From assembly GCF_013076305.1 (NCBI RefSeq), contig NW_027019762.1, positions 5,477,008-5,524,260 on the forward strand: DNA of 47,253 nt, read 5' to 3'. Origin of the DNA: Rhopilema esculentum (Eukaryota). This document shows, in pieces, positions 3,000-36,239 of the stretch (position 1 is the first letter of the stretch; every line of letters starts with the position of its first letter). A program made the translations under genes and the position numbers. The notes under the pieces were generated by a model, which searched no databases, was not told the origin of the DNA, and saw only the letters and a program-made list of their open reading frames with translations.

Positions 3000-3382
3000 T
3001 CAAAAGAAATTATTTTCATAATCAAAAAAGAATGGGTGATATCCACTATACCACAAGACTACTGATATTCCAGGGGGCGGCTGGCTATGATAAGCTGTTG
3101 GATGCATATACCAGCCCGACTTAACATGCTTCACGCCATATCCCACGATTTCAACGAAAATGCTGTTAAAACTGCAAGTTGTTGTTACCACGAGATCTCC
3201 CCCTGAACCACTTGTTGCTTGAAAAGCGACACATTTTCTTGAGATTACGTGCATCATCTGGTTTTGCCCGTTTTTGCAAAACAGTTGACATTGGCGCGTT
3301 ATTGTTAGCTTTCCTTGCGAATTCACTTTCACGCACATGTTGTGTTGGTATCCCTTGAATGCCAAGTAGAATGGTGTTTCAG
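3000..3382 (-). CDS. Terminal coding exon of paralog A: cysteine-containing domain, tentatively the C-terminal half of a fibrinogen-related domain (FReD)
   Basis: Acceptor is taatttacag|CTGAAAC. Translation is ETPFYLAFKGYQHNMCVKVNSQGKLTITRQCQLFCKNGQNQMMHVISRKCVAFQATSGSGGDLVVTTTCSFNSIFVEIVGYGVKHVKSGWYMHPTAYHSQPPPGISVVLWYSGYHPFFFDYENNFF, followed by a stop. FCKNGQNQ…KCVAFQA resembles the FReD FSTKDQDND…NCAEKFQGA motif. The stop is conserved with paralog B. Confidence 0.4.
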
Positions 3383-4037
3383 CTGTAAATTAAAATAATT
3401 TCATTACACAGAGATAACAAAAGATCTTGAAATCTTATCTTGAAATCTTCAAAATAGAAATTAGATACTGAGAAAGAGCAGGCTTCTTATCCTGTAGCCA
3501 GATATATTTTGCTATGCAAGAAAGTATTTTGTAAATAAGCTACAAAAATTTCTTCAGATAAATCATTTTCGGCGGATAAACTTCGTCGAAAAAAATTTAA
3601 GACATCTTTTCAGAATTGAGGCAAAACTCGTATGCAGTAGTTTGCTTAATTCTAAATCTCGTATGCACCGACTCCAGTAAACTTAAAATCTTGAAGAAAT
3701 TCATTCATTGGACAAATTTCGGACGTTTTTTACAAAATTCATATCGTAACAAATTTTCGGACAAAAACAAAAGCAATAGAATAACATTTAAACAGCATGT
3801 TACTTCTTATAAAGCTTACTATGAAGTCAATACCTCATTTGATTTAAAATCGAAAGTCACATGAGTTCAAAGAAGTCGTTATTCCAACTCTCTCAATGGG
3901 GATCTTGTTTTTTTCATTTCAAGAGCCATTGCAAAAACTTTTGAAATCATCCTACGATTGCTGCAAATTTCACCGTGACATATATCAAAACAAAGATATA
4001 AATTACCATTTGATATTTTCGCATCTACTATCTCGAT

Positions 4038-4412
4038 CAATAAGATAAGGCCTACCTTTGTTTCTTAAAGGATACAGATCCCAGCCTTTGGTTATGTTTG
4101 CCCTGGTATGAAGCGACTCGAAACATTCCAAGCGCGCAAGTATGCATTCCACCCCAGTCGCACCAGTTTTTAGGATGAGAAAATTAGCAACATTGCAATT
4201 CTTATTCATTGTACACCGATGTATACATAATTGAATGCTGGCTACTTGCAGTTGCTGGGAATAAGGTGGCAGTAGCTTCATGTCTTTCAGGTATTTCTCT
4301 ATTACCCATCCTTGCCCCTTTGTGAGCAAAAGAATCAGTTGCAGCAAAGTTGAAAGTGGACCAGGCTCAAACAGCTTCATTTTCTCGAAGAGTCTCGTCA
4401 TCAACTAAAAAC
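4038..4412 (-). mobile_element. Interspersed repeat copy A (about 375 bp, SINE-like, with tRNA-like A and B box motifs)
   Basis: It is about 98% identical to 10784-11155. The minus strand carries TGGCGCCACTGGGGTGG (A-box-like) and GTTTCGAGTCGC (B-box-like). Sequences outside the shared ends are unrelated, so this is an insertion rather than part of the segmental duplication. The long ORF across it (4003..4404) is probably fortuitous. Confidence 0.5.
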
Positions 4413-8932: not shown

Positions 8933-9315
8933 TCAGAAGAAATCATTCATGAAATTGAAAAAGAATGGCTGATATCCACTATACCACAAGATTACTAATA
9001 TTCCAGGTGGTGGCTGGCCCTCATAAGCTTGTGCATGCATATAAAAGCCCGACTTAACATGCTTCACGCCAGTTCCCAAGACTTCCACGAACACGCTGTT
9101 ACTATTGCAAGTTGTTGTCACCACGATATTTCCCGTCCACCATTCCTTTGCTTTAAAAGCCATACACTTTCTCGAGACTACGTGCATCATCTGCTTCTGT
9201 CTATTTATGCAAAACATCTGACATTGGTGCGTTATTGTAAGGTGTCCTTGCGAATTCACTTTCACACACATGTTCTGTTGGTTTCCCTTGTATGCCAAGT
9301 GGAACGGTCTTTCAA
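8933..9315 (-). CDS. Terminal coding exon of paralog B (about 72% amino-acid identity to 3000-3382)
   Basis: Acceptor is tcatttacag|TTGAAAG, at the homologous position. Translation is ERPFHLAYKGNQQNMCVKVNSQGHLTITHQCQMFCINRQKQMMHVVSRKCMAFKAKEWWTGNIVVTTTCNSNSVFVEVLGTGVKHVKSGFYMHAQAYEGQPPPGILVILWYSGYQPFFFNFMNDFF, followed by a stop. All cysteines and the stop position are conserved with paralog A. Confidence 0.4.
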
Positions 9316-10783
9316 CTGTAAATGAAGGTAAATTTATTTCTCAGTAAAAATGGGAAGCTCTTCGTGTAGCTAAATCACATTGAGCCGCTGAACAGCAATA
9401 TCAAATAGGAGATAACAATAATAAAAATTGTTCTTGGGTACACCAGCATTTGATTCAAATACTGTTGTTTTCATTTTCCTGCTTTTCTAATAGTTTAGCA
9501 AGCCCTTATCCTCAAATGTCTCCATCATGAAGTAGCAATTTTGCAATATAATGCTTAATTCCATGATCAATTATATTTTTAACCGAAACTCAAATAAAAC
9601 AAATCATTAAAGTTATTTTTGTCAGCATTGACTCCCAGAGCCTACTGTTTCTCAAAAAAAGTTAAATAAGCGAAAATATTTCTAAAAAAATAGGTTATTA
9701 GGTTATTTTTAAACCCCAACCCTTATTTAAGCCAAATTACTAAAAGACTTTTGCTCTAGCTTCTTCTTCTGCGTAATTGAGCGGTTTTTATACGTTCGAT
9801 GAACAAAAAACGAACATTAAACAACATTAAACAAGATAGAGCCACGGAAAAATCCTTGCAGTACTCTTGATAAGAATGTATCTAACTTCTGTTGCAAAAT
9901 TATAGCTACTGAATGGATCCCAATTCAGAGGGAAGTTATAAGGTATACAGAAGATTCTTGTCAATGTGAAGTCAGTCGCGCAGTCCAAACCCTTAAACTT
10001 CACTCCTTTTCAATGCAGGTATATTGAGTATCAAAGTTTTAAAATTATCTAACCCGACTATTTCAAGTATCATGAATCTAAAAGCAGCCTAAAAATTCTC
10101 AGTCATGCCAAAAGTAAGTAATGAAACGGTTAAGTTAGGTTATATTACAGTGATAGCAGTTCAGAGATAGTCGACAAAAATTAAAGTATTATCTTTTCTT
10201 GTTGAAAAGTGACAAACCGTTTGCTAAAGCGTTGAAGCGTTTACTTTTGAAAGGAATTTTAGATACAGCTGTTAATGGGTGTGGTACATATTTCGACCTG
10301 ATTTCGATAGGAGTACACTTTTAAACCCTTCTAATTGACTTTCATTCCTATATTCTGCCTGAACTTTGATTGCATTTAATTGCATTGTATTGTTTTGACT
10401 CGTTAGTTTTAGTCCTTCGTAAAGAAATCGGATTTAGGTTTTCGGGGTTTTATACTCCAAATGATATATTTTAGATGGTATTAATTCGATAGCAGCGCTA
10501 ACACGAATGAGTATGGCATCTTCCAAATACCGATTTTGCTGTAAAAGACCTTGTTGAAAATTTTAGTATTGGAAAAAGAAATTGAAGCATGTTTCTCCAA
10601 AACCTCTTCAAACCTTTTCTTCGACAACCTAGTTTCACATACAATACACATAAATAGCATTGACTTTATAAATATCTGATTTTCAGAGTTTTAAGTTAAG
10701 ACCATATCATCTGTTGACAGATAAATGCCCAAATTTAAAGTTTCTACCACTTTAAATCTTCTCACCTCACCTACTGCCAAGGT

Positions 10784-11155
10784 GAAGGCCTACCTTTGTT
10801 TCTTAAAGGATACAGATCCCAGCCTTTGGTTATGCTTGCCCTGGTATGAAGCGACTCGAAACATTCCAAGCGCGCAAGTATGCATTCCACCCCAGTGGCG
10901 CCAGTTTTCAGGATGCGCACATTAGCAACATTGCAATTCTTATTCATTGTACACCGATGTATACATAATTGAATGCTGGCTACTTGCAGTTGCTGGGAAT
11001 AAGGTGGCAGTAGCTTCATGTCTTTCAGGTATTTCTCTATTACCCATCCTTGCCCCTTTGTGAGCAAAAGAATCAGTTGTAACAAAGTTGAAAGTGGACC
11101 AGGCTCAAACAGCTTCATTTTCTCGAAGAGTCTCGTCAGTAACTAAAAACTACTC
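10784..11155 (-). mobile_element. Interspersed repeat copy B (SINE-like)
   Basis: About 98% identical to 4038-4412, with the same ends (gcctacctttg … aactaaaaacta). Confidence 0.5.
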
Positions 11156-24968: not shown

Positions 24969-27333
24969 TAGGTCTTTGGCGGTTATTTGCTATTGGCAGC
25001 ACAGCACCCACTTCCCCCTTATGCTTAAGCCATGCTTAAAATGAACTTCAGCTTCAATGTTGTAAAATTAACTCCTGTTAGCTAATTAGGATAACCATCC
25101 TAGAGGGACTCTGCTGTCATATACGTCTACCAGATAGTCAATGGACTTTTAGCATCAGAGCAGATTTAACCAAATGAATAGCCAAAAAAGCCTTTGATAC
25201 AATCATACTAAAGTTCTGCCGACACTAGTACTAGATAGAAATCAAAGTTCGGCAAATGCTGATCTATAGAAATATTGGTCAATTTTCATTACTTCAATAT
25301 AAAAAGTTTCCAGTGTTAGCCATAGAGAGGAAAGAATTGTGTACTTTATCAGCGTAGGCGTCAACTCAAAAGTAAGGGAAATAAAATATTTTCTTCGCAT
25401 AGATTTTCTCATTCTTTCATCATGTGGTCAACGATTTGAATGTGCTACAATTTTCACTTGGAAAAATATAAACATGCCAACAAGTAATCATCTGATGGTA
25501 TATCGATCTTTGAAGTCCGCAGAAATCACACTACATGTTCTTATGTAATTTGTAAAAAATCAATTTCAGGTTAGGCCACTTTTTGGAGAGACCTGAGTTC
25601 CATGAACTAAAAAGTACCCCAATGATGAAAGCAAAAAGCTACAAAGACATAAGAGCCCAATGTTAGTATTGATATTTTTGGAAACGATATCAATGACTCA
25701 CCTAGTGACTTGATTCCAACGGTTTCAAGTAACTTCAGAAGGTGTCTTTTGTTACTATTAAAGAAGACTTCATCGATGTCCCATGAACCGCTCTGTTGAA
25801 TTGAGATAATTGTTGTCTTTCAAATAAGCTGTAACTTATATTTGAAAATCAAAGCTGATACAAAATCACTCCTAAAGAAATGCTATACATGCTTATTACT
25901 TTATCAATTCATCATTAATCTATGGCTTATGAGTATTTGGGAATGCAGGTGATAACCAATGCTAGATAGAGGAATGTGGTTTACACAAATTTGATTGGTT
26001 TAATTCGATGGGGACTCCCGCTGCGGTGTTTCTTTTGGCTGTCAATCAAAAAGTTACGTCTACCTATGCGTCTACGCTGTGGGTAAAGAAACACTGGAAA
26101 CCGTTTCCTGCAAAGCAGCCTCTTAAAATTCATTCATTGTCTGCATATAAAAGCTCAAAAAGTTAAGGCATTTTGAACAGATAGAATATACTAAAAGGAT
26201 GCACAAAATTTAAAGCCTTCAAATAGATTAAAACAAAGGATGCTTCTTGATATTCATGAATTTTTTTACAAGTGCTTGGACAGTCCCCGAAAAAATGAAA
26301 CACAAGATTCTTCGACAAATAATGCAAAGCGCACACGCAATTACAGCGTTTCATCGAAAACACAAGAACGCAGTGAATTCTCTAACTACATTCATTACCA
26401 ATGCATTGGGGTGAAATGGGCAAACAAAGGCTGCCCAGTAAATTGTCCCAACATTCTGTTTCACAAATAGAATATGCAGGTTTGTACTCACCTCCTTCTG
26501 CTTGCTGACAAGCAAATTTAAATCCAACATATTGACATCAAAAAGAGGCTGGGTAAACTCTACTTCGTCCATCCAGGGCCTGTCTTTGTATTTATTCGGT
26601 AAAATGAAACCGATACCTGTACAAAAAAAAATAAAAAGCCTTCAAACAATTTTTATTTTCTTTTCACTAGGTTACAACAATCATGTTTTGTTACAATGAC
26701 TTATATGTTTTTAGACTAATTAGAATTCTGCTGGATAAACAAAACAGAAAATTCATCTTCCATGGGCAAGAAAAGTTATGGAAGTATGCTTGTCTGAATA
26801 TTACAGAAATGAAAACTGAACGAACGGTTGGAATGTTATCTGACAAAATGACCTCAATATTTTTATAGCGATATGCAGTCTCTTTAGAATACCATAACAA
26901 AAAACAATAGAAAAACATCTGGTGAACCTTTAAAAATGCCTGTAGTTTTGTCTTTCGTTTCTGAAGACAGTCGACAAGCTAGAAGCAGAAAAAAATAACG
27001 ATTTTAATAACAATGTAAGGCGTTGTTAAAAATGGATAGAGCATTTGTCAGAAAGATGTGTTAACAGACCAACAATACGATTTTCGAAATATACGTCTTA
27101 GAAGAGATTAGGCATTATATCACAGACAGCAAGTCATATAAATATGACATTAGGGAGAGTACAGTTCCACGCCATTAGAGTTGTCTTTCTGTGAAAATGA
27201 GGCTTATGCACATAGTCCTATGAGCAAGAGGTAGTAATGAATTAATCACTGATCAATATGCAAATGCAACGGATTAAGATAGGATTATGACCTAAAAAAG
27301 ACATTTTAGATTGCTGAAAGTCTATCTGCATAC

Positions 27334-27991
27334 CAAAATCTGAAGATTGACGTGTTAGGCCAGACAGAAAGTGAAGAGGTTCTTCTGGTGGTAAAGGCAG
27401 TTTTTTTTTCTTTTTCTTGGGAAACATTTGTGATTGTCCTAGAGCAACAAGAGATTTTCGTAGTAAAGATTCGCTCTGAATATTTGCTGCTTGTTTTTGG
27501 GCTAGTTTTATACAGCGTAGCTGAGAAGATTGCATCATTTTTTCTGGCGGTATTGATTGCAATGCTCCGCCGGCCTGTGGTGGTGCGGATGCAGAATGTT
27601 GCCAAGGCGGCAGTGGTGGCGATCCAGGCTGCATTGATAGAAGTGGCTGTTGTGCAAGTTGACGCGGTGGCGGTGGCGGCATCGGTGGTGCTCCAGGCTG
27701 CATTGATAGAAGTGGCTGTTGTGCAAGTTGACGCGGTGGCGGCAGCGGTGGCGCTCCAGGCTGCATTGATAGAAGTGGCTGTTGTGCAAGTTGAAGCGGT
27801 GGCGGCAGCGGTGGCGCTCCAGGCTGCATTGATAGAAGTGACTGTTGTGCAAGTTGACGCGGTGGTCGTGGCGGTGGCGGTGGGGTTTCAGACTGTAATG
27901 CATTGCTAATCTGTGGTGGTGATGGTTGAGGTCCTATTGGTACTGATCCTGGTGGTGGTATACAGCCTGATGGAGATCGAGAATTTCGCAT
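27334..27991 (-). CDS. Proline-rich repeat exon (about four tandem 21-residue QLAQQPLLSMQPGAPPLPPPR units with formin FH1-like polyproline), in-frame ATG at 27991
   Basis: The open frame translates as MRNSRSPSGCIPPPGSVPIGPQPSPPQISNALQSETPPPPPRPPRQLAQQSLLSMQPGAPPLPPP…, then a lysine run, then LPLPPEEPLHFLSGLTRQSSDFG. Donor is TTTTG|GTATGCAG. An alternative acceptor at tctccatcag|GC is possible. It is not clear whether this exon belongs to the same gene as the exons upstream. Confidence 0.45.
27590..27890. repeat. Coding minisatellite (63-69 bp units, 4 copies) inside the proline-rich exon
   Basis: ccaggctgcattgatagaagtggctgttgtgcaagttgacgcggtggcggcagcggtggcgct recurs starting at 27624, 27693, 27756 and 27819. 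Confidence 0.8.
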
Positions 27992-28575
27992 CGTGTTAAA
28001 ATAGGAATTGAACCATTAGCATACAAGCTTTTCAAATAATGCACAAACAATGAAAAAGCCACGGCATCATGACCCTGCGACGAGGTTCTTTGATACGAAT
28101 ATCTAGTCTATGATATAGTGAATGATATAGAGATGAGTCATGTCTTCATGAACGCCTTCTGAGCGCCATTGGATTCCTAGGTTTATCATTTCGTATTGAA
28201 AAAACAAGGAAAGAAATCATATAGTTTGAAACTAGTGTTACTAATTTGCAACATATATGCGGCTGTCTACAAGCTTTCATAACTAGAAACGATTTCAGCA
28301 TTACGGAGTGAAACTTGACCTAACTGCTCTGCAATTGGCAACTTTCGACAACTTTTAAGGGACAGGTATACCACTCCACAGATCCTGAGCGCTAACAAGA
28401 CAACACTGAAACAAGATTAGAGCCTCCTACACGTCACATCCTAGAGCCCACAATACATTACATACTACAGCTTACAATACACCGCATAAGGACATGACAT
28501 CATCTTAGCTACAAGTATATAGTTAAAGCACGTATGTAGCCAAAAACGTAAAGAATTTTACACTTACACTCATAC

Positions 28576-28705
28576 ACTGCGTCCATTTCTTCCAAAGGTC
28601 TTATTATTTCAGAACGGAAGCTTCTTTTATGTTCTCCAATGGAAGCACCTTTGCGTGCTGCACCAAAGAGCATGGAACCCATAGGTTTACTTCTTGACTT
28701 TAATT
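28576..28705 (-). CDS. Exon with similarity to the small acidic protein (SMAP/C11orf58) family core
   Basis: Acceptor is tcacctttgcag|AATTAAAG (phase 1, matching the upstream donor). Translation is ELKSRSKPMGSMLFGAARKGASIGEHKRSFRSEIIRPLEEMDA. Human SMAP, recalled from memory, has [33 protein letters not shown]. Donor is GCAGT|GTATGAGT. Confidence 0.4.
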
Positions 28706-29297
28706 CTGCAAAGGTGACCCAAAGTGAAATTTCAGAGAACCAAACACTAATATACACACTTTGTTACATTGGAAAAATAATTATTCCTTCATTCTATTTT
28801 CTTCTTATAGCTTCACATAAAACATAAAAGAATCAAATTTTTCGTGGTGCAAAAATTAAAAAGGGCTTTGAAAAAAAGAAAAAATCTTAAAAATACTAAA
28901 AATTTCCGTCTGACACTCCAGAGTCTAAAATATCAGAATATAGATCGAGAAAACTAAGCCAGGATATATGTATAAACCCATTTTTGGATTGAAACAGGCC
29001 ATTCAGAATCGCGAGTACACCACGGTAAAGGTTTCCCAATCATAGAAAATATAGTCGAAGGGTGAAAATGAACTCCTGTCTACGCAATACCGGTTTTTTC
29101 ACTTTTATGCAGATAGATTGTAAATCTGCTAAATAGAACGGTGACCGGGCTCTATCAATGTTGCCATCGTGGGTTTTGGTACAATCTGGGTTTTCCAGGA
29201 AAATGCTGTCCGATAGCAGAAGCGGAAGAGTTCATTTCTAAATTATATTTCATCATGTTAATCTAAGTATGATTTTTACAAAATATTAACTACATAC

Positions 29298-29381
29298 CAT
29301 ATGGTTTAGACGCCTCTTCATGAATTTTCTTTACTTCTATATTTGCAATCTTTTCAGTGAAGGCTAACTCGTCCATCATGC
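29298..29381 (-). CDS. Exon downstream of the tandem array (possible small acidic protein-like gene) with ATG ATG
   Basis: Acceptor is cttaaaag|GC. In phase 1 this joins T plus GC in frame with ATGATG, reading C-MMDELAFTEKIANIEVKKIHEEASKPY. Donor is CCATATG|GTATGTAG (phase 1). Confidence 0.45.
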
Positions 29382-30079
29382 CTTTTAAGCAAAATTACAA
29401 GACTAAAGATGTTGTAATATGAATTAATGTAAAAGCATGTTTACGTGAAACTTGAGTTTTAGATTTATTTTGACCCAATGAAGCTTTCAATAGAGATGGG
29501 CACTATGCTATCTTTAGTGCCTTTAAGACATAGTAAGATTCAATTATGGTAACTGTATCTTATAATAAGGCAGTTATTGTGTCTAGTACACCACTGTGTC
29601 TTATAATGAGGTCATAGTTTGCCCAGACCTGTCTTGCTAAAAATCTATCTAGAAAATCAATTGCTGCAGAGTCTGACTTGATAACGGGTTATGCTCGAAA
29701 CGTCGTTATTTATTTTAAACAAATTTTTCCTGGTACAATTTACTTACATTGGTCGTTATTATAGCATCATATTGTACCGCACGCATTTTAGTATATTTGG
29801 AGAGTTTGTTCGACTTGATCTAAGCTTTAATGAATCAAAAAGGAAATTTCATCTTCCCACGGAAGAAAATAAATCAGACAGAAAAACTGCTCACTTGGTG
29901 CAGACAATTGTACACAAGATTTCGTTTCTTCTCGGCTAATGGCAAGAGCGGCTGAAACAAAATGGGGTATAAGAAGAAATGCTCGATATAGAAAATTAAG
30001 TGATTAAATTTAATATATGAAAAGTAAATATGAGAAATAGCAAGTCTCTTGAAAATACTTGCATAATTTTCAGACTTAC

Positions 30080-30156
30080 AATTGGCAATGTCTTCGTCGT
30101 CTGCAAAAATATCCTTCTTTGCTGATTTCTTAATGGACTTCGTTGCACTCGATTGG
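30080..30156 (-). CDS. Tandem-array exon copy 1 (lysine-rich then IFADDEDIAN), no ATG
   Basis: The candidate acceptor ctttgaaag|C (phase 2) is weak. Translation is QSSATKSIKKSAKKDIFADDEDIAN. Donor is T|GTAAGTCTGAAAATTATGCAAGTATTTTCAAG (phase 1). Length is 77 nt, which is 2 mod 3. Confidence 0.35.
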
Positions 30157-30409
30157 CTTTCAAAGTTGGTTGTTTCAGCTTTTATTTTGTGGCATGCAAC
30201 TTGAAGAAAAAAATTATCGAAATCAAAGCGCTGATATCTAACTAACTTGATATGAACAATGTAATGATATATAAAACATGAAAACGTAATTTCATTGCAA
30301 CGGTTCATTTTAAAGTTTGAAAATCCAAATTAAATTAACTATATCAATATATTATTTCGGTTCATTTTTAAAAATTTCTTGAAAATACTTGCATAATTTC
30401 TAGACTTAC

Positions 30410-30495
30410 ATGCAAAAATGTCTTCATCCTTGTCTGCAAAAATGCTCTTTTTTGCTGATTTCTTTGTACTTGGCTTGCTTTGAATCTTACTCATC
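30410..30495 (-). CDS. Tandem-array exon copy 2 (lysine-rich then IFADKDEDI)
   Basis: Acceptor is tttcttag|G, followed immediately by ATG. Translation is MSKIQSKPSTKKSAKKSIFADKDEDIFA. Donor is T|GTAAGTCTAGAAATTATGCAAGTATTTTCAAG (phase 1). Length is 86 nt, which is 2 mod 3. Confidence 0.4.
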
Positions 30496-31147
30496 CTAAG
30501 AAAGCTTTCAGTTTTTTCAGCTTTCAGAAAAAGATATCGAATAAAAAGGCTGGTTTGGAGAAAAATCTTTTTTAGGATCTAAAGTTAAAAATTTCAACTC
30601 ATTCACACAATCCTAAAATTTGTAAAGGGCAAGGCCTAGAGGGCCATTCTAAAGTATGATTTAAAATGAAGACACTTATTTTCTACACTAAGTTAGAAAT
30701 ACAGAAATATACTATATCGTCGGAACGTAACTCATATTGGAAGGGGCTGTCCATTCATTCGCTTCTCTGTTGTAGATAACATAGAACACAGTGTGATAAT
30801 TATTGCCCCAAGCCCCCAATTCTGACTGCCCCGATAAGAATTGCTCACCAGAGGCTCGAGATGAGTCTGTAGTAATTCCTTTTCGCTTCACTTCTACATG
30901 TGCGCTACCGAACGTAGTTTTCTTTCCAGCTAAAATGTAAAAAGCTCGTAGGAAAAAATCACTTGATTAACGACAATAAATATTTCCTTAACCATGTAAC
31001 ATAGAGCAGTATTTTTATGCCACTGATTATGCTATAAATTTTTTTCAGCAAAATTTATCTACAGAGTGTGCTTCCTCGACTAAAACGGGTCTGACTTCTC
31101 TCAAATTCTTCTCTGACACAAAATACTTGCCCAATGTTCAGACTTAC

Positions 31148-31299
31148 ACACAATATCCTCATCATCGTCAGAAAAGATGCTCTTTTGAGTAGTTTTAAGC
31201 AACGGTTTCCTGGCTCTTAATTTGCTTTGAAGTTCATTCATCACATCCATACTTTGATATGGTGCAGCTGTCAGGAAAAGAGTGTTCTGTTTCATCGGC
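31148..31299 (-). CDS. Tandem-array exon copy 3: actin-like LLTEAP-type segment followed by a lysine-rich and acidic IFSDDDEDI motif
   Basis: Acceptor is tatag|G (phase 2). There is an in-frame ATG. Translation is MKQNTLFLTAAPYQSMDVMNELQSKLRARKPLLKTTQKSIFSDDDEDIV, where LFLTAAPYQSMD resembles actin VLLTEAPLNPK. Donor is T|GTAAGTCTGAAC (phase 1). Length is 152 nt, which is 2 mod 3. Confidence 0.45.
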
Positions 31300-31718
31300 C
31301 TATACTTTCTACAAAAGCAGCTACGGCAAACAACGAGTGGGACTGTAGCCCTAAATATTATAGTATCTTAAAGGAGAAAGTATTCGGAAGGGAAACAAAC
31401 TTTTAATAAACTTTTGCTGAGACTTTTAGACTTTTTGAGACGAAATTTGTTACATTCTTTGACTTTCATTTATGCGTCATGAAAAAAACTACAAAGACTT
31501 TTTGAGGATACTTCCAAATAGCAATCTTTTAAAATGGCCTCACTCGTTCTTTTCTTTTGTCCGCTAAAGCTGTGTCCATTGAATATTTTGCCCTTGAAGG
31601 TACGCTTTGCTAGGAATCGAATTTCCTAGAACACCACAAAACCATTTAATTTATTAAAACGCTAAAACGTTACAATAAATTTCTTGCAAACGTTACAATA
31701 AAAAGAGATAATTAATAC

Positions 31719-31848
31719 CTGGTGGGGCTTTTAACATAGCTGGTTTTGGTGGCAAATGGAAAGGGCTGCTTAAAGACAATATTCCACGCTTTGATTCGGC
31801 TTCCTTGCCAATATACGAGTCTTTTTGGCCCATACCGACCATGACGCC
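31719..31848 (-). CDS. Actin-related protein, second exon
   Basis: Acceptor is tccgtag|GGCGTC. Translation is [43 protein letters not shown]. Actin has [35 protein letters not shown], and the sequence diverges after that point. Donor is CCAG|GTATTA (phase 1). Confidence 0.6.
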
Positions 31849-32328
31849 CTACGGATTCAAAAAAGTTTATCAGATTCGTTCGAAGGGTCGTGACGATATT
31901 GACATATGACGCAGCAATCACGACACAGAGATGTTATGGGACAGCAGACGGGGTAATTCAAGGTTGTCGATGATCATCTACCCAGATTTTCATAATATTC
32001 AATTTCCTTAGTATAAATGCAAATATCAAAACAAGATGTCTTTAAACTTTCAACTCATTTAAAGCTACTTCAGACTTCAATTGCAACCGATAACATGCTG
32101 TAAATCCCTTAGCATATTTACAAAAGAAGTGACATGTTCCCTTTTCAGCTCTTAGTCTCTTCTCCAAAACACATCAGAACAGGAGTTCGTTGTAAACAGC
32201 ACATGAATTAACTTCACAAACATTATTACCAATTAACGAAATAAATTAATGGCTTAAAACTAGGAGCGATGCCAAAAAACTCGAAGAGGTTGTGCAAAAA
32301 GAGTCTGACAGCGGTGCCATGTACCCAC

Positions 32329-32457
32329 CTGATGTCTTGGCCGGCCAATGACTGATCTTAATTCAACTTTTGGATGTATTTCGCCAGCAAATCCGGCTTT
32401 CACAGTGTGCATACCCGTGTCAAGTACAATAGCAGGGGGCAGCATATCTTCATTCAT
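32329..32457 (-). CDS. Actin-related protein (Arp/actin-like), first coding exon
   Basis: The exon starts with ATG and translates as MNEDMLPPAIVLDTGMHTVKAGFAGEIHPKVELRSVIGRPRHQ. Actin has [43 protein letters not shown]. The phase-0 donor CAG|GTGGGT sits at the conserved actin intron position after HQ. The nucleotide-binding loop NGSG is replaced by DTGMH. Confidence 0.7.
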
Positions 32458-33015
32458 GTCTCTTTCAAGTTCTTCATCTGTAAACAGCTCATCCGATTCT
32501 TCAATGCTATTTAATGTAATAATTTCATTCTACATGCGTATGTTAACACAGTTTTGTCTACATAAAACATCGCAGAATAAACTGAAAGATTCTTCAAAAC
32601 AGCGAAGCTTGCTACTTTACTTCAAAGGTGAAGTTGTCTTCGCAATAGATGTCCCTTTGCAAATTGTTCCATTGCCCTATTCACAATTCATCCAACAGAA
32701 AGTCGAACACAGTTTTCGAACACAAAAAACCATCGACTAAGGTTAACGTTTTTCTTCATCCATTAAAATGACACCAGTAAAAATAAAGTTCTAAAACCCG
32801 ATTGCTCAAAACGTAGCACTTAATGATAAGGATTTTTTTATTTGACTTTTTCTACAGCTCTAGAATTTGTAGACAAACAAGGCAAGACATGAAAAATCAA
32901 AAGTATCTGTGCGGATAGAAGCAATGTGCATAAATGCCACTCTACTTTTGAGGCTATAGAGGTTTTACACTAAAGACGAATGGAAATAAGCAATAGATGA
33001 AACATTGATGAACAC

Positions 33016-33540
33016 TTACAGACCAGATACGCATCCATTGTCATCTTCACTGCTTAAAGAAGACATCGAGTTCATAGAAGCAGAAACATCCATCGTCTCA
33101 TAAATTTCATCATCTTGCAAGGCGCATGTGTATTCTAAAGAAGCAGGAATATCCATCTGTTCATAAACATCATCTTCTTCTGAGATGGATGTGTATTCTT
33201 CACATTCAAGACAAGCAAGTGTCTCTTCTTTAGAAATATCTTTATCTTCTCCTTGTGAACGGCCCTCCTCAAAACCCATGTAAGCTAGGAAATCTACATT
33301 TTCCATTTCCACCAACTCATCTACAGAAGGAGCGTTTACATCATCATATAATTCCCCATCTTTGCGCTCTTCCACAGCAACAAAACTGGTGAACTGCGTC
33401 ACAATAGAATGTTTTATGCTCAGCTCAATCACCTTGTCTTTCATTTCTCGCTTGAGCATCTCGTGCTCAGTCCGGCTCTCACTCAAGGTGCCATCTTCCC
33501 AGTCCTTGATAACTGCCCGGGCGGCCAGCCGGTGAAGTAT
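33016..33540 (-). CDS. PARP4: PARP4-like terminal coding exon (TSFVAVE region plus acidic tail, ending in TAA)
   Basis: Acceptor is ccctgtctacag|ATACTT. The translation begins ILHRLAARAVIKDWEDGTLSESRTEHEMLKREMKDKVIELSIKHSIVTQFTSFVAVEERKDGE…VDFLAYMG and continues into an acidic tail. Human has IHKLAARALIRDYEDGILHENETSHEMKKQTLKSLIIKLSKENSLITQFTSFVAVEKRDENE. The stop TAA is at 33016-33018. A GTAAGT follows immediately, so a further 3' exon cannot be excluded. The human C-terminal MVP-binding region has no counterpart before the next gene. Confidence 0.7.
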   Translation of the reverse strand: MLHRLAARAVIKDWEDGTLSESRTEHEMLKREMKDKVIELSIKHSIVTQFTSFVAVEERKDGELYDDVNAPSVDELVEMENVDFLAYMGFEEGRSQGEDKDISKEETLACLECEEYTSISEEDDVYEQMDIPASLEYTCALQDDEIYETMDVSASMNSMSSLSSEDDNGCVSGL

Positions 33541-34365: not shown

Positions 34366-34696
34366 TGTCAAAAGAAAATTAGGATATTATACACTGGTAT
34401 TGGCAGACCTTTGCATCCATCAGTAAAAAAAACTGAGAGACACAAAAAGAATAAAATTGCAGCCTCTACTTTCATATCCTGTTTGTAACATAATTCTTAA
34501 TAAGTGGGCGTCTTTACGTGTAGCAATTTCTAAGTTTGCAGTAAATAAACTGGATTCTCATAACAAAGGTAATTATTTAATATTTTCAGTAGACGTTGAA
34601 ATTTTGTTTTATGATAACATTTCTGCTTCCGATCCTTGTATCCCGCAAAGGTCGTGGAAGTAACTCTCTAAAAAACTTCAAGTAATTATCACCAAC

Positions 34697-36239
34697 CTGT
34701 AATGGCAGTGGCGCATCGTGATCAAACTGTTGCCAGGTGACTCTGACTGACTCTAACACAGGTTGTTGGGCTTTATTCAGCTGCGATTTAATCTTGTCTT
34801 CCCACCTAGATTTGGCCTTTGCATCAAAGAACTCAGCAGCACCAGCACCAATCTGAGCAAGCTTGGTTAAAAGGTGTCTGTTTGCTGTTGACCCAAAGCC
34901 AAATGAAAATACTCGTACCAATCTTGAATTCTTTCGTATTGATGCCATGGTTGATATCTCTTCAGAAATTTCTCCATCAGAAAATAAAAACACATTCACC
35001 GGATGCGTAGATTTATCATCTGCCAAAAGATGCAGTTTTCGTAAGACTCGCCACAGAGCTGTACCGCCTTTCACAGGATGCATCTTGTTACAAAATTTCT
35101 TTGCTTCAGACAGTGATTCTGTAGATTTAGGTTGGCATTTAGGAAAAAGCTGGTCATAGTTTGTTCCAAAACCTATGATATTGAAAGAGCATTTTTCTGG
35201 CAACCTGAGTAAAGCCAGAATGACAGCTTTCTTAACATCATTGAAGCAATCTTTCATTGAATTTGATGCATCAATCACAAAAACGACTTCCATTTCTTTC
35301 TCTACTGTATCATCGAATTCAGGAAAGAAAGTCAACATGCAAGCTTGGTCATCGCTGTCTTCAGGATCTTGTTCTGACCACATCCTGGGCACATGAATTT
35401 CCGCAAGGGACACAAAAAGCTGAAAGCCGGTTCCAAGACCATGTGTGTCTGATTGAAGACCAACTACTGCCTTCGTATCTGTCCTTTTTACTTTAAGCAA
35501 ATGTGTCGGAGACTTAAGTTCCTTGATTTTAAACGGCATGTCAATGGAAATTAAAAGAGAAAATTTTTCTTCACTCTCTAAAACATCAACTCGCTTTACG
35601 TCTGATTGTATGACTTGGTCAAGAGCTTTGTCACGTTTCCATGGGGCAACTGAACCAGGGAGCGAGAAGTTTACCATCTCACCCTCTAAGGGCAGCTCTG
35701 AAACGTAGGTAATTTTGATAATAACCCGAGCTGCTGCCGGAAGATTTCCTACACTTACAGTGAATACATCAGGCTTCTCTTCATCCATTAAGTAGGCACC
35801 GTGACCTTGGCTTATAGCTTCTTTGTACTCTTTGTGGGCCTTCTCTTTCTCTTTAACCTGCCCAACAATATGCTTCCCATTGATAAATGCCTCAAAACCA
35901 CAAACTGCAGCCATGCTGTTTAAAGGAAATACATATTTGGCTTCTATAGACTCTGAACTTTCATTGACATACTCTTGAAAAACGACCACCTCTGCTGCAA
36001 GGTCTACTAGCTTTGCTCTCACGTGGACAGATTTCAAAGGGACCGGCGTTTCACCATCCGTTTGCAAACCTGGTACCACCTTTTCTAGTGGATCTGGAAC
36101 TGCTTCAACGTCCTCTAAGCTTATCTCAGAAGAAGAGGTCTGATAATCTGACTCAATACCCTCATCTTCTGACAAAACTTCCAGTGACTTAGAGGGTGAG
36201 ACTTTAGCGTCACCGTCTATCGTAAATTCCACCAAATAC
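34697..36239 (-). CDS. PARP4: PARP4-like large exon: VIT domain plus VWA domain
   Basis: Acceptor is cgccattccag|GTATTTGG (phase 2). The 514-codon translation includes VHVRAKLVDLAAEVVVFQEYVNESSESIEAKYVFPLNSMAAVCGFEAFINGKHIVGQVKEKEKAHKEYKEAISQGHGAYLMDEEKPDVFTVSVGNLPAAARVIIKITYVSEL (VIT) and VVFVIDASNSMKD … FSFGFGSTANRHLL (VWA). Identity to human PARP4 is high, for example AKYIFPLDDKAAVCGFEAFINGKHIVGEIKEKEEAQQEYLEAVTQGHGAYLM. Donor is CAG|GTTGGT after WQQFDHDAPLPLQ. Confidence 0.9.

Follow-up and report, generated by a model that had tools for sequence, protein, structure and literature searches.

Do neighbouring paralogous exons that share one splice phase replace one another, one per transcript, or do they follow one another in the same message? 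The question is raised by three short units on the minus strand of a 47,253-nucleotide (nt) stretch of the Rhopilema esculentum genome (contig NW_027019762.1; hereafter the window, to whose own numbering all positions refer), a eukaryotic sequence of ~35% G+C with short spliced exons. The units lie in the part of a PARP4-like gene that would encode the tail of the protein, and an earlier note on this DNA had read them as mutually exclusive cassette exons whose lengths would enforce the choice of a single one. Our analysis favours, with a probability of about 0.7, a different reading, in which the three exons, here called A, B and C, are serial symmetric exons that would have arisen when an exon end and its donor were duplicated in tandem, and would add up to three copies of a short motif to the encoded protein.

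Three paralogous exon ends in a common phase

A search of the minus strand with GTAAGTCTGAAAATTATGCAAGTATTTT, allowing at most 3 mismatches, returned exactly three copies (31147-31120, 30409-30382 and 30079-30052); 100 dinucleotide shuffles gave none, and even at 8 mismatches the window contained no further copy, save one spurious match. Ahead of each copy lie a lysine-rich stretch and a coding end of the form (S/D)IF-x-D-acidic-EDI, followed by the donor T^GTAAGTCT…GCAAGTATTTT (here and below, ^ marks an exon-intron border). The in-frame ends read KSIFSDDDEDIV in A, KSIFADKDEDIFA in B and KDIFADDEDIAN in C, and all three donors are phase 1 (T^GT). The observation from which the earlier note had started, namely three paralogous exons in tandem with one common splice phase, a conserved donor block and a lysine-rich, IF-acidic motif in frame before every donor, is therefore borne out.

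The exon starts had to be redrawn. All splice sites reported here are predictions that combine sequence, phase logic and orthologous loci. Alignment of the paralogues with their flanks brought out a second common block, a pyrimidine tract with AG, at the upstream end of each unit: ctcttttcctgacag^CTGCA in A, tctttttctgaaag^CTGAA in B and tttttttcttcaag^TTGCA in C. Pyrimidine content between -20 and -3 is 0.67-0.72 at these acceptors (31267, 30520 and 30199), as against 0.39-0.50 at the acceptors guessed earlier (31299, 30495 and 30156). Compared with the guessed sites, the aligned acceptor is shifted downstream in A and upstream in B and C. The borders obtained in this way define exon A (31148-31267, minus strand, 120 nt, phase 1-1), which encodes (A)APYQSMDVMNELQSKLRARKPLLKTTQKSIFSDDDEDIV in an open frame and has orthologous starts in the related loci L001, L006, L009 and L011; exon B (30410-30520, minus strand, 111 nt, phase 1-1), which encodes (S)EKTESFLRMSKIQSKPSTKKSAKKSIFADKDEDIFA without stops; and exon C (30080-30199, minus strand, 120 nt, phase 1-1), which encodes (F)ACHKIKAETTNFESQSSATKSIKKSAKKDIFADDEDIAN in a frame that is open from 30329. 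The lengths of 152, 86 and 77 nt given previously came from the guessed acceptors, which, when joined to the donor of the actin-fragment exon just upstream (actin exon 2), run into immediate stops in A and B and lose the motif frame in C. The acceptor of exon A, on the other hand, suits that donor, the sole upstream donor available, and the donor itself (CCAG^GTATTA) is phase 1, so that the phase mismatch once noted at this junction disappears. Of the proposed pattern of phase 2 in and phase 1 out, the exit phase stands, and the entry phase becomes 1 with the aligned acceptors.

With these borders A, B and C join in frame, and dropping any combination of them leaves the frame open; the phase-1 donor also joins in frame to the exon at 29381, as had been proposed. 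Overall, between 33555 and 26492, a chain of 11 exons that all have consensus splice sites yields 759 amino acids (aa) with no stop, on a path that leads from the PARP4-like C-terminal exon through the two actin exons and A-B-C to a proline-rich exon. All junctions from actin exon 2 onward are phase 1 (A, B, C and the downstream exons E, F and G), so the tail exons could be spliced in series or skipped singly without change of frame. The earlier argument had been that lengths of 2 mod 3 permit one unit and forbid two. The predicted borders, with lengths of 0 mod 3 and phases 1-1, refute mutual exclusivity enforced by the frame in this way.

Exactly one of A, B and C might nevertheless enter each messenger RNA (mRNA) by some other means. 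Adjacent paralogous exons of similar length in one phase satisfy the usual computational criteria for mutually exclusive exons, and a conserved intronic block lies beside each. The Dscam exon clusters, which are mutually exclusive exons derived from exon duplication, resemble the present array in exactly these respects: tandem homologous exons, similar length, equal phase and conserved intronic sequence beside each exon. They differ from it in mechanism and in product, since here there is no frame enforcement and no docking/selector pairing, introns are long, splice sites are of U2 type only, and the exons encode a repeatable linear motif, not an interchangeable part of a folded domain. More precisely, the introns between A and B (627 nt) and between B and C (210 nt) are too long for steric exclusion, the donors are all U2-type GTAAGT and leave no room for a U2/U12 incompatibility, neither a docking complement nor a shared hairpin rose above shuffled controls, and double or triple inclusion stays in frame. 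Moreover, homology covers only the last ~45 nt of the exons, and A includes a further, conserved helix segment that is missing from B and C. Together with the one or two copies in relatives and the series of similar motifs in an oyster protein model (see below), these points make a choice of one exon per mRNA very improbable. The significance of the analysis is thus chiefly corrective: what looked like a mutually exclusive cluster reads as a symmetric exon end that was triplicated, in an ordinary and lineage-specific way, within a repetitive tail.

The ATGs at the 5' edge of two copies had suggested alternative first exons or three small independent genes, and a non-coding repeat had been considered as well. 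Both ATGs are present, at 31295 and 30494; in the supported model that of B lies inside the exon, within a longer open frame, and that of A falls in the intron, upstream of the acceptor. The units sit within the continuous PARP4-like frame, which argues against first exons and small genes alike. As for a non-coding repeat, the encoded motif is conserved as protein in relatives and oysters, and no other copy occurs in the window or the related loci, so that a dispersed element is not at hand. We regard this group of explanations as scarcely credible. The actin-like LLTEAP segment ascribed to the most upstream copy likewise dissolves: the letters LFLTAAP span the acceptor of A and are mostly the translated polypyrimidine-AG signal, and the relatives have no such segment.

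Copy number and exon order among relatives

The closest relatives of the locus are unannotated ENA/Logan contigs, 64-73% identical to it in the exon that encodes the VIT and vWA domains, and loci L001, L006, L009/L010 and L011 were compared. In every related locus the C-terminal exon, actin exon 1 and actin exon 2 follow in this order on the same strand, and the junction from C-terminal to actin exon is phase 2 in the window, L001 and L006. All four compared loci carry a helix exon orthologous to the first half of A (…ELxxKL…) and a separate lysine-rich exon with an acidic/Phe motif (FFGDDEDDLF, DLFADDSGSLF, AELFDDDD or FGIFD), and both exons are phase 1-1 throughout. The number of unit copies varies, being 3 in the window, 2 in L001 and 1 each in L006, L009/L010 and L011. 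As to the comparable array that the earlier note had suggested looking for in related species, the four genomes share the exon order and the 1-1 phases, with one or two copies of the unit. Since the relatives carry one or two, the three copies of the window are lineage-specific. The two copies of L001 (17560-17760 and 18656-18860) belong to a recent, near-identical 1096-nt tandem duplication that comprises the lysine-rich/FFGDDEDDLF exon and flanking intron, and are a very recent example of the same process.

What was copied in the window can be delimited. Exon A is composite, its 5' half being orthologous to the helix exon of the relatives and its 3' ~45 nt paralogous to B and C. Similarity between units extends from about -45 in the exon to +28 in the intron (A versus B or C) or to about +35 (B versus C), and then falls to background. 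Because paralogy is limited to the 3' exon end and the start of the intron, it would be an exon end with its donor, not a whole exon, that was duplicated or converted. In the scenario that we favour, the ancestral state, as judged from the relatives, would be one helix exon followed by one exon with the lysine-rich patch and the hydrophobic-Phe/acidic motif; in this lineage a short segment, consisting of ~45-50 nt from the exon end and the adjoining 28-35 nt of intron, would have been copied or converted three times, and one copy would have been placed on the end of the helix exon to yield exon A. Each exon would then supply one basic patch and one IF-acidic-I(F/V/A) short linear motif, and the copies would be spliced in series, giving three motifs, or be dropped singly with the frame unchanged.

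The exons have the features of a serial repeat: lengths that are multiples of three, identical entry and exit phase, and variable copy number. Known tandem duplications of symmetric exons that encode repeats in disordered regions likewise show neighbouring paralogues of the same phase with lengths that are multiples of three, and here the copy number is 1, 2 or 3 among genomes; the present case departs from them in that paralogy is restricted to some 45 nt at the 3' end of the exon and to the 28-35 nt or so with which the intron begins, and in that a different exon, the helix exon, has received one of the copies. Indirect support for a serial order in the mature mRNA comes from the PARP4-like protein of the oyster Saccostrea echinata (XP_061195145, a RefSeq model of 2494 aa), in which KHIFMEEDI, FGLFDDD…LPKKKAPP and MNLFDDDELPKKKAPP stand in series after the actin fragment, with proline-rich stretches and a canonical WH2 motif beyond them. 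All three exons are probably spliced in.

B and/or C could alternatively be decaying pseudo-exons, copies of an exon end that splicing leaves out of the mRNA. Their acceptors are of the AAG type, homology is confined to the 3' end, and most relatives need a single unit. Yet each of them retains a stop-free frame (111-120 nt) in the right phase, a perfect GTAAGT, a pyrimidine-rich acceptor and an intact motif, and one of the two at least has to be orthologous to the separate unit exon found in every relative, which makes decay quite improbable.

If the serial reading holds, the locus offers a small, clean example of how the copy number of a short linear motif can evolve through duplication of an exon end with its donor. 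Tandem exon duplication, motif repeats in disordered tails, and the combination of PARP4-like and actin sequences are all of known kinds; the bounded intronic block described next is a small detail that they leave unexplained.

The intronic block beside each donor

On the minus strand, the block is GTAAGTCTGAACATTGGGCAAGTATTTT after the donor of A (31120-31147), GTAAGTCTAGAAATTATGCAAGTATTTTCAAGAAA after that of B (30375-30409) and GTAAGTCTGAAAATTATGCAAGTATTTTCAAGAGA after that of C (30045-30079). The A and B blocks match the C block at 25/28 and 26/28 positions, respectively, with similarity ending at +28 for A and reaching to about +35 between B and C. All three have GTAAGT at +1, a donor-like element of GC type, GCAAGTAT, at +18, and a GT at +22, which, lying 21 nt downstream, would serve as an in-frame alternative donor. 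Across +1 to +28, 25-26 of 28 positions match (82-93%), compared with background level from +36 to +95 (p 1e-5 to 7e-4), and this segment is nominally better conserved than the last 48 coding nt (p 0.006-0.07, on small numbers).

Such sharp bounds and high conservation could mean that A, B and C are independently regulated cassette exons, with the 28-nt block (GTAAGT plus the U1-like GCAAGTAT) acting as a shared splicing element that tunes the number of motifs. Skipping would be costless with all tail exons in phase 1, and the GT 21 nt downstream would offer a further in-frame option. Against this, the numbers are small and a short duplication or gene-conversion tract ending at +28/+35 also fits; in addition, neither the 12 related loci nor JGI metagenome contigs contain the block, an Rfam scan of 27000-33500 gave no match at E<=1, and no consistent structure emerged. 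In RNA pairing analyses the units shared no hairpin (the sole notable one is that of unit C, z -2.2), and duplexes between the block and the rest of the pre-mRNA did not exceed those of shuffled blocks. We therefore hold regulated cassettes to be possible, though rather unlikely. The more specific proposal, that the block with GTAAGT and the second GC-type U1-like GCAAGTATTTT is a control element shared by the paralogues that sets the number of motif exons in PARP4-like mRNA, combinatorially or one at a time, seems unlikely; if true, block-controlled inclusion would tune the valency of a tail linking a vault-type PARP to actin- or trafficking-related partners.

Two further interpretations of the block were set aside. 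Read through as coding sequence it would give CKSxN(Y/W)A, but each of the five differences between copies changes the amino acid, and the distal GT makes a weak donor, which lends support neither way. A GT…AG mini-intron of 32-35 nt within the block would produce a stop right after splicing in 3/3 units and would be implausibly short next to the introns of this genome, which measure 200-800 nt. Most likely, then, the block is a duplicated or converted splice-site region, and possibly a splicing element. Bounded as it is, it provides a handle for asking whether duplicated splice-site neighbourhoods carry function.

Several points weigh against the serial, duplication-based reading that we favour. 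Conservation of the block equals or exceeds that of the coding part, which simple neutral duplication does not predict and which hints at splicing regulation. The acceptors of A, B and C are predictions; at that of B, position -3 is an A, and the AG of cttag^G at 30496, 25 nt further downstream, is a plausible second site. Open frames of 37-40 codons occur in ~11-13% of random intervals of this length here, so that the openness of a single exon is weak evidence in itself and the argument rests on the whole chain. Finally, sequence search for homologues of the tail, comprising the units and the downstream exons, returned none at E<=0.01.

The PARP4-like gene and its tail

The exons on the minus strand between 26492 and 38745 appear to form a single PARP4-like gene. 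Its order runs from PARP regulatory and catalytic domains through VIT and vWA, an acidic Tyr-repeat, an N-terminal actin fragment and the motif exons to a proline-rich repeat exon. The exon at 37909-38745 matches Pfam PARP (1.9e-13) and PARP_reg (3.3e-05), and that at 34586-36235, which has PARP4 homologues, matches VIT (1.4e-39) and VWA_3 (1.4e-24); the PARP catalytic and regulatory domains, VIT and vWA are thus found by Pfam in one gene, as in PARP4. In sequence searches the best annotated homologues are PARP4 or PARP4-like, at no more than 49% identity. A conserved C-terminal exon (33020-33540, minus strand; ILHRLAARAVIKDWEDG…) shares 67-76% identity with the relatives. The TAA that ends its open reading frame (33014-33020, minus strand) sits inside the phase-2 donor CT^GTAAGT, so that retention of this intron would give a tail-less protein stopping exactly at the TAA. 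In L006 the stop of the C-terminal reading frame likewise lies in the donor (GC^GTAAGA, ~13237). At 33076-33199 the C-terminal exon contains 2 in-frame copies of a 63-nt repeat with an acidic EY…DD(V/I)YExMD…AS unit, and the oyster PARP4-like protein has a comparable DDDVYMDSVEAS immediately ahead of its actin fragment.

Actin-fragment exon 1 (32329-32506, minus strand; …PAIVLDTGMHTVKAGFAGEIHPKVELRSVIGRPRHQ) opens with a phase-2 acceptor, aaatag^C at 32506, that fits the donor of the C-terminal exon, and exon 2 (31719-31848, minus strand; …PAMLKAPP) ends with the phase-1 donor given above and is kept in all relatives. Together they match positions 5-65 of the Pfam Actin profile (E 1.2e-12), corresponding to ~65 N-terminal actin residues. 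The actin segment appears to belong to the same protein as the PARP4-like part, because the phases agree across the junction in the window, L001 and L006, the exon order is kept, and the annotated PARP4-like proteins of Saccostrea and Amphiura have an actin fragment on their C-terminal side. The connectivity that the earlier note could not settle would accordingly be that of one PARP4-like gene with an embedded actin fragment. PARP4-like proteins of clade 5 with a C-terminal actin or actin-binding domain have been described (Perina et al. 2014, PMC4245714). The present gene resembles them in combining PARP_reg, PARP catalytic domain, VIT, vWA and a C-terminal Pfam actin match, and differs in that its actin part stops after the first ~65 residues and gives way to a lineage-specific tail made of motif exons. 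That a vault-type PARP, an actin fragment, acidic-Phe motifs and proline-rich repeats (with WH2 in oysters) occur together supports the PARP-cytoskeleton link noted earlier for clade 5, a link that is not new.

In a search of a representative library, the open reading frame of actin exon 2 alone gave mainly exon-sized fragments, together with a few long proteins that contain this module. A protein of that library, P0316 (717 aa), has an EF-hand-like N-terminus, the actin fragment with an SPF segment, a proline-rich part and an acidic-Phe motif (EEDMGFDLFGG), and is without a PARP part; the actin-fragment tail module thus exists outside PARP4-like genes too. Another locus, L012, proved to be a genuine actin gene cluster and irrelevant here. 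The oyster protein XP_061195145 (P0243; residues ~1650-1665 and 2150-2290) bears the canonical WH2 DRQTLLQSIIRGQALKKI after proline-rich/acidic-Phe repeats, with a segment like the HSP70 substrate-binding domain beyond; this segment could be true architecture or a fusion in the gene model.

Downstream of exon C the chain continues, on the minus strand and always in phase 1-1, with exon E (29298-29381, 84 nt), which encodes (S/C)MMDELAFTEKIANIEVKKIHEEASKPY, exon F (28568-28705, 138 nt) and the proline-rich exon G (27292-27966). Inside exon G, an in-frame 63-nt tandem repeat at 27606-27879 amounts to 4.3 copies of PPRQLAQQPLLSMQPGAPPLPP. Two further candidate exons, both on the minus strand and in phase 1-1, were proposed from splice signals and an open frame: X (30849-30929, 81 nt), in an 84-codon open reading frame between A and B, and D (29895-29951, 57 nt; ttttgtttcag^CC…CCAA^gtgagc), between C and the 29381 exon, which the earlier note had missed. 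A search of the relatives for homology to X and D found none.

The tail as a whole reads as a fast-evolving, low-complexity C-terminal part of a gene of the vault-PARP clade, and its composition suggests that it is probably disordered. The unit peptides, of the type KKSIFADKDEDIF, match no Pfam family; they are probably copies of a short linear binding motif, which in series would act as a multivalent one. The N-terminal half of exon A (VMNELQSKLRARKP) bears a loose resemblance to WH2, and was not retained as such, with no Pfam WH2 match at E<=1. Another parallel is the LFa motif of the FAM21 tail, L-F-[D/E]3-10-L-F, where Ile, Val or Met may take the place of Leu (Jia et al. 2012, PMC3374753). 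In both cases a hydrophobic-Phe dipeptide, an acidic stretch and a second hydrophobic dipeptide recur in several copies within a low-complexity tail, with IF-ADKDED-IF in exon B, FF-GDDEDD-LF in L001 and LF-ADDSGS-LF in L006; exon B fits the definition loosely. In contrast, A (IF…IV) and C (IF…IA) have no second Phe, a lysine-rich patch precedes each motif here, and the host is a PARP4-like enzyme, not a WASH subunit. We propose LFa as a resemblance, not as a class to which the units belong.

Elsewhere in the window, the minus-strand intervals 3000-4404 and 8933-11118 hold paralogous pairs of open reading frames, one of 121 aa (3000-3365 and 8933-9298) and one of 133 and 115 aa (4003-4404 and 10771-11118), which indicate a tandem segmental duplication of ~6 kb; the genes within it are cysteine-rich and possibly PAN/Apple-like.

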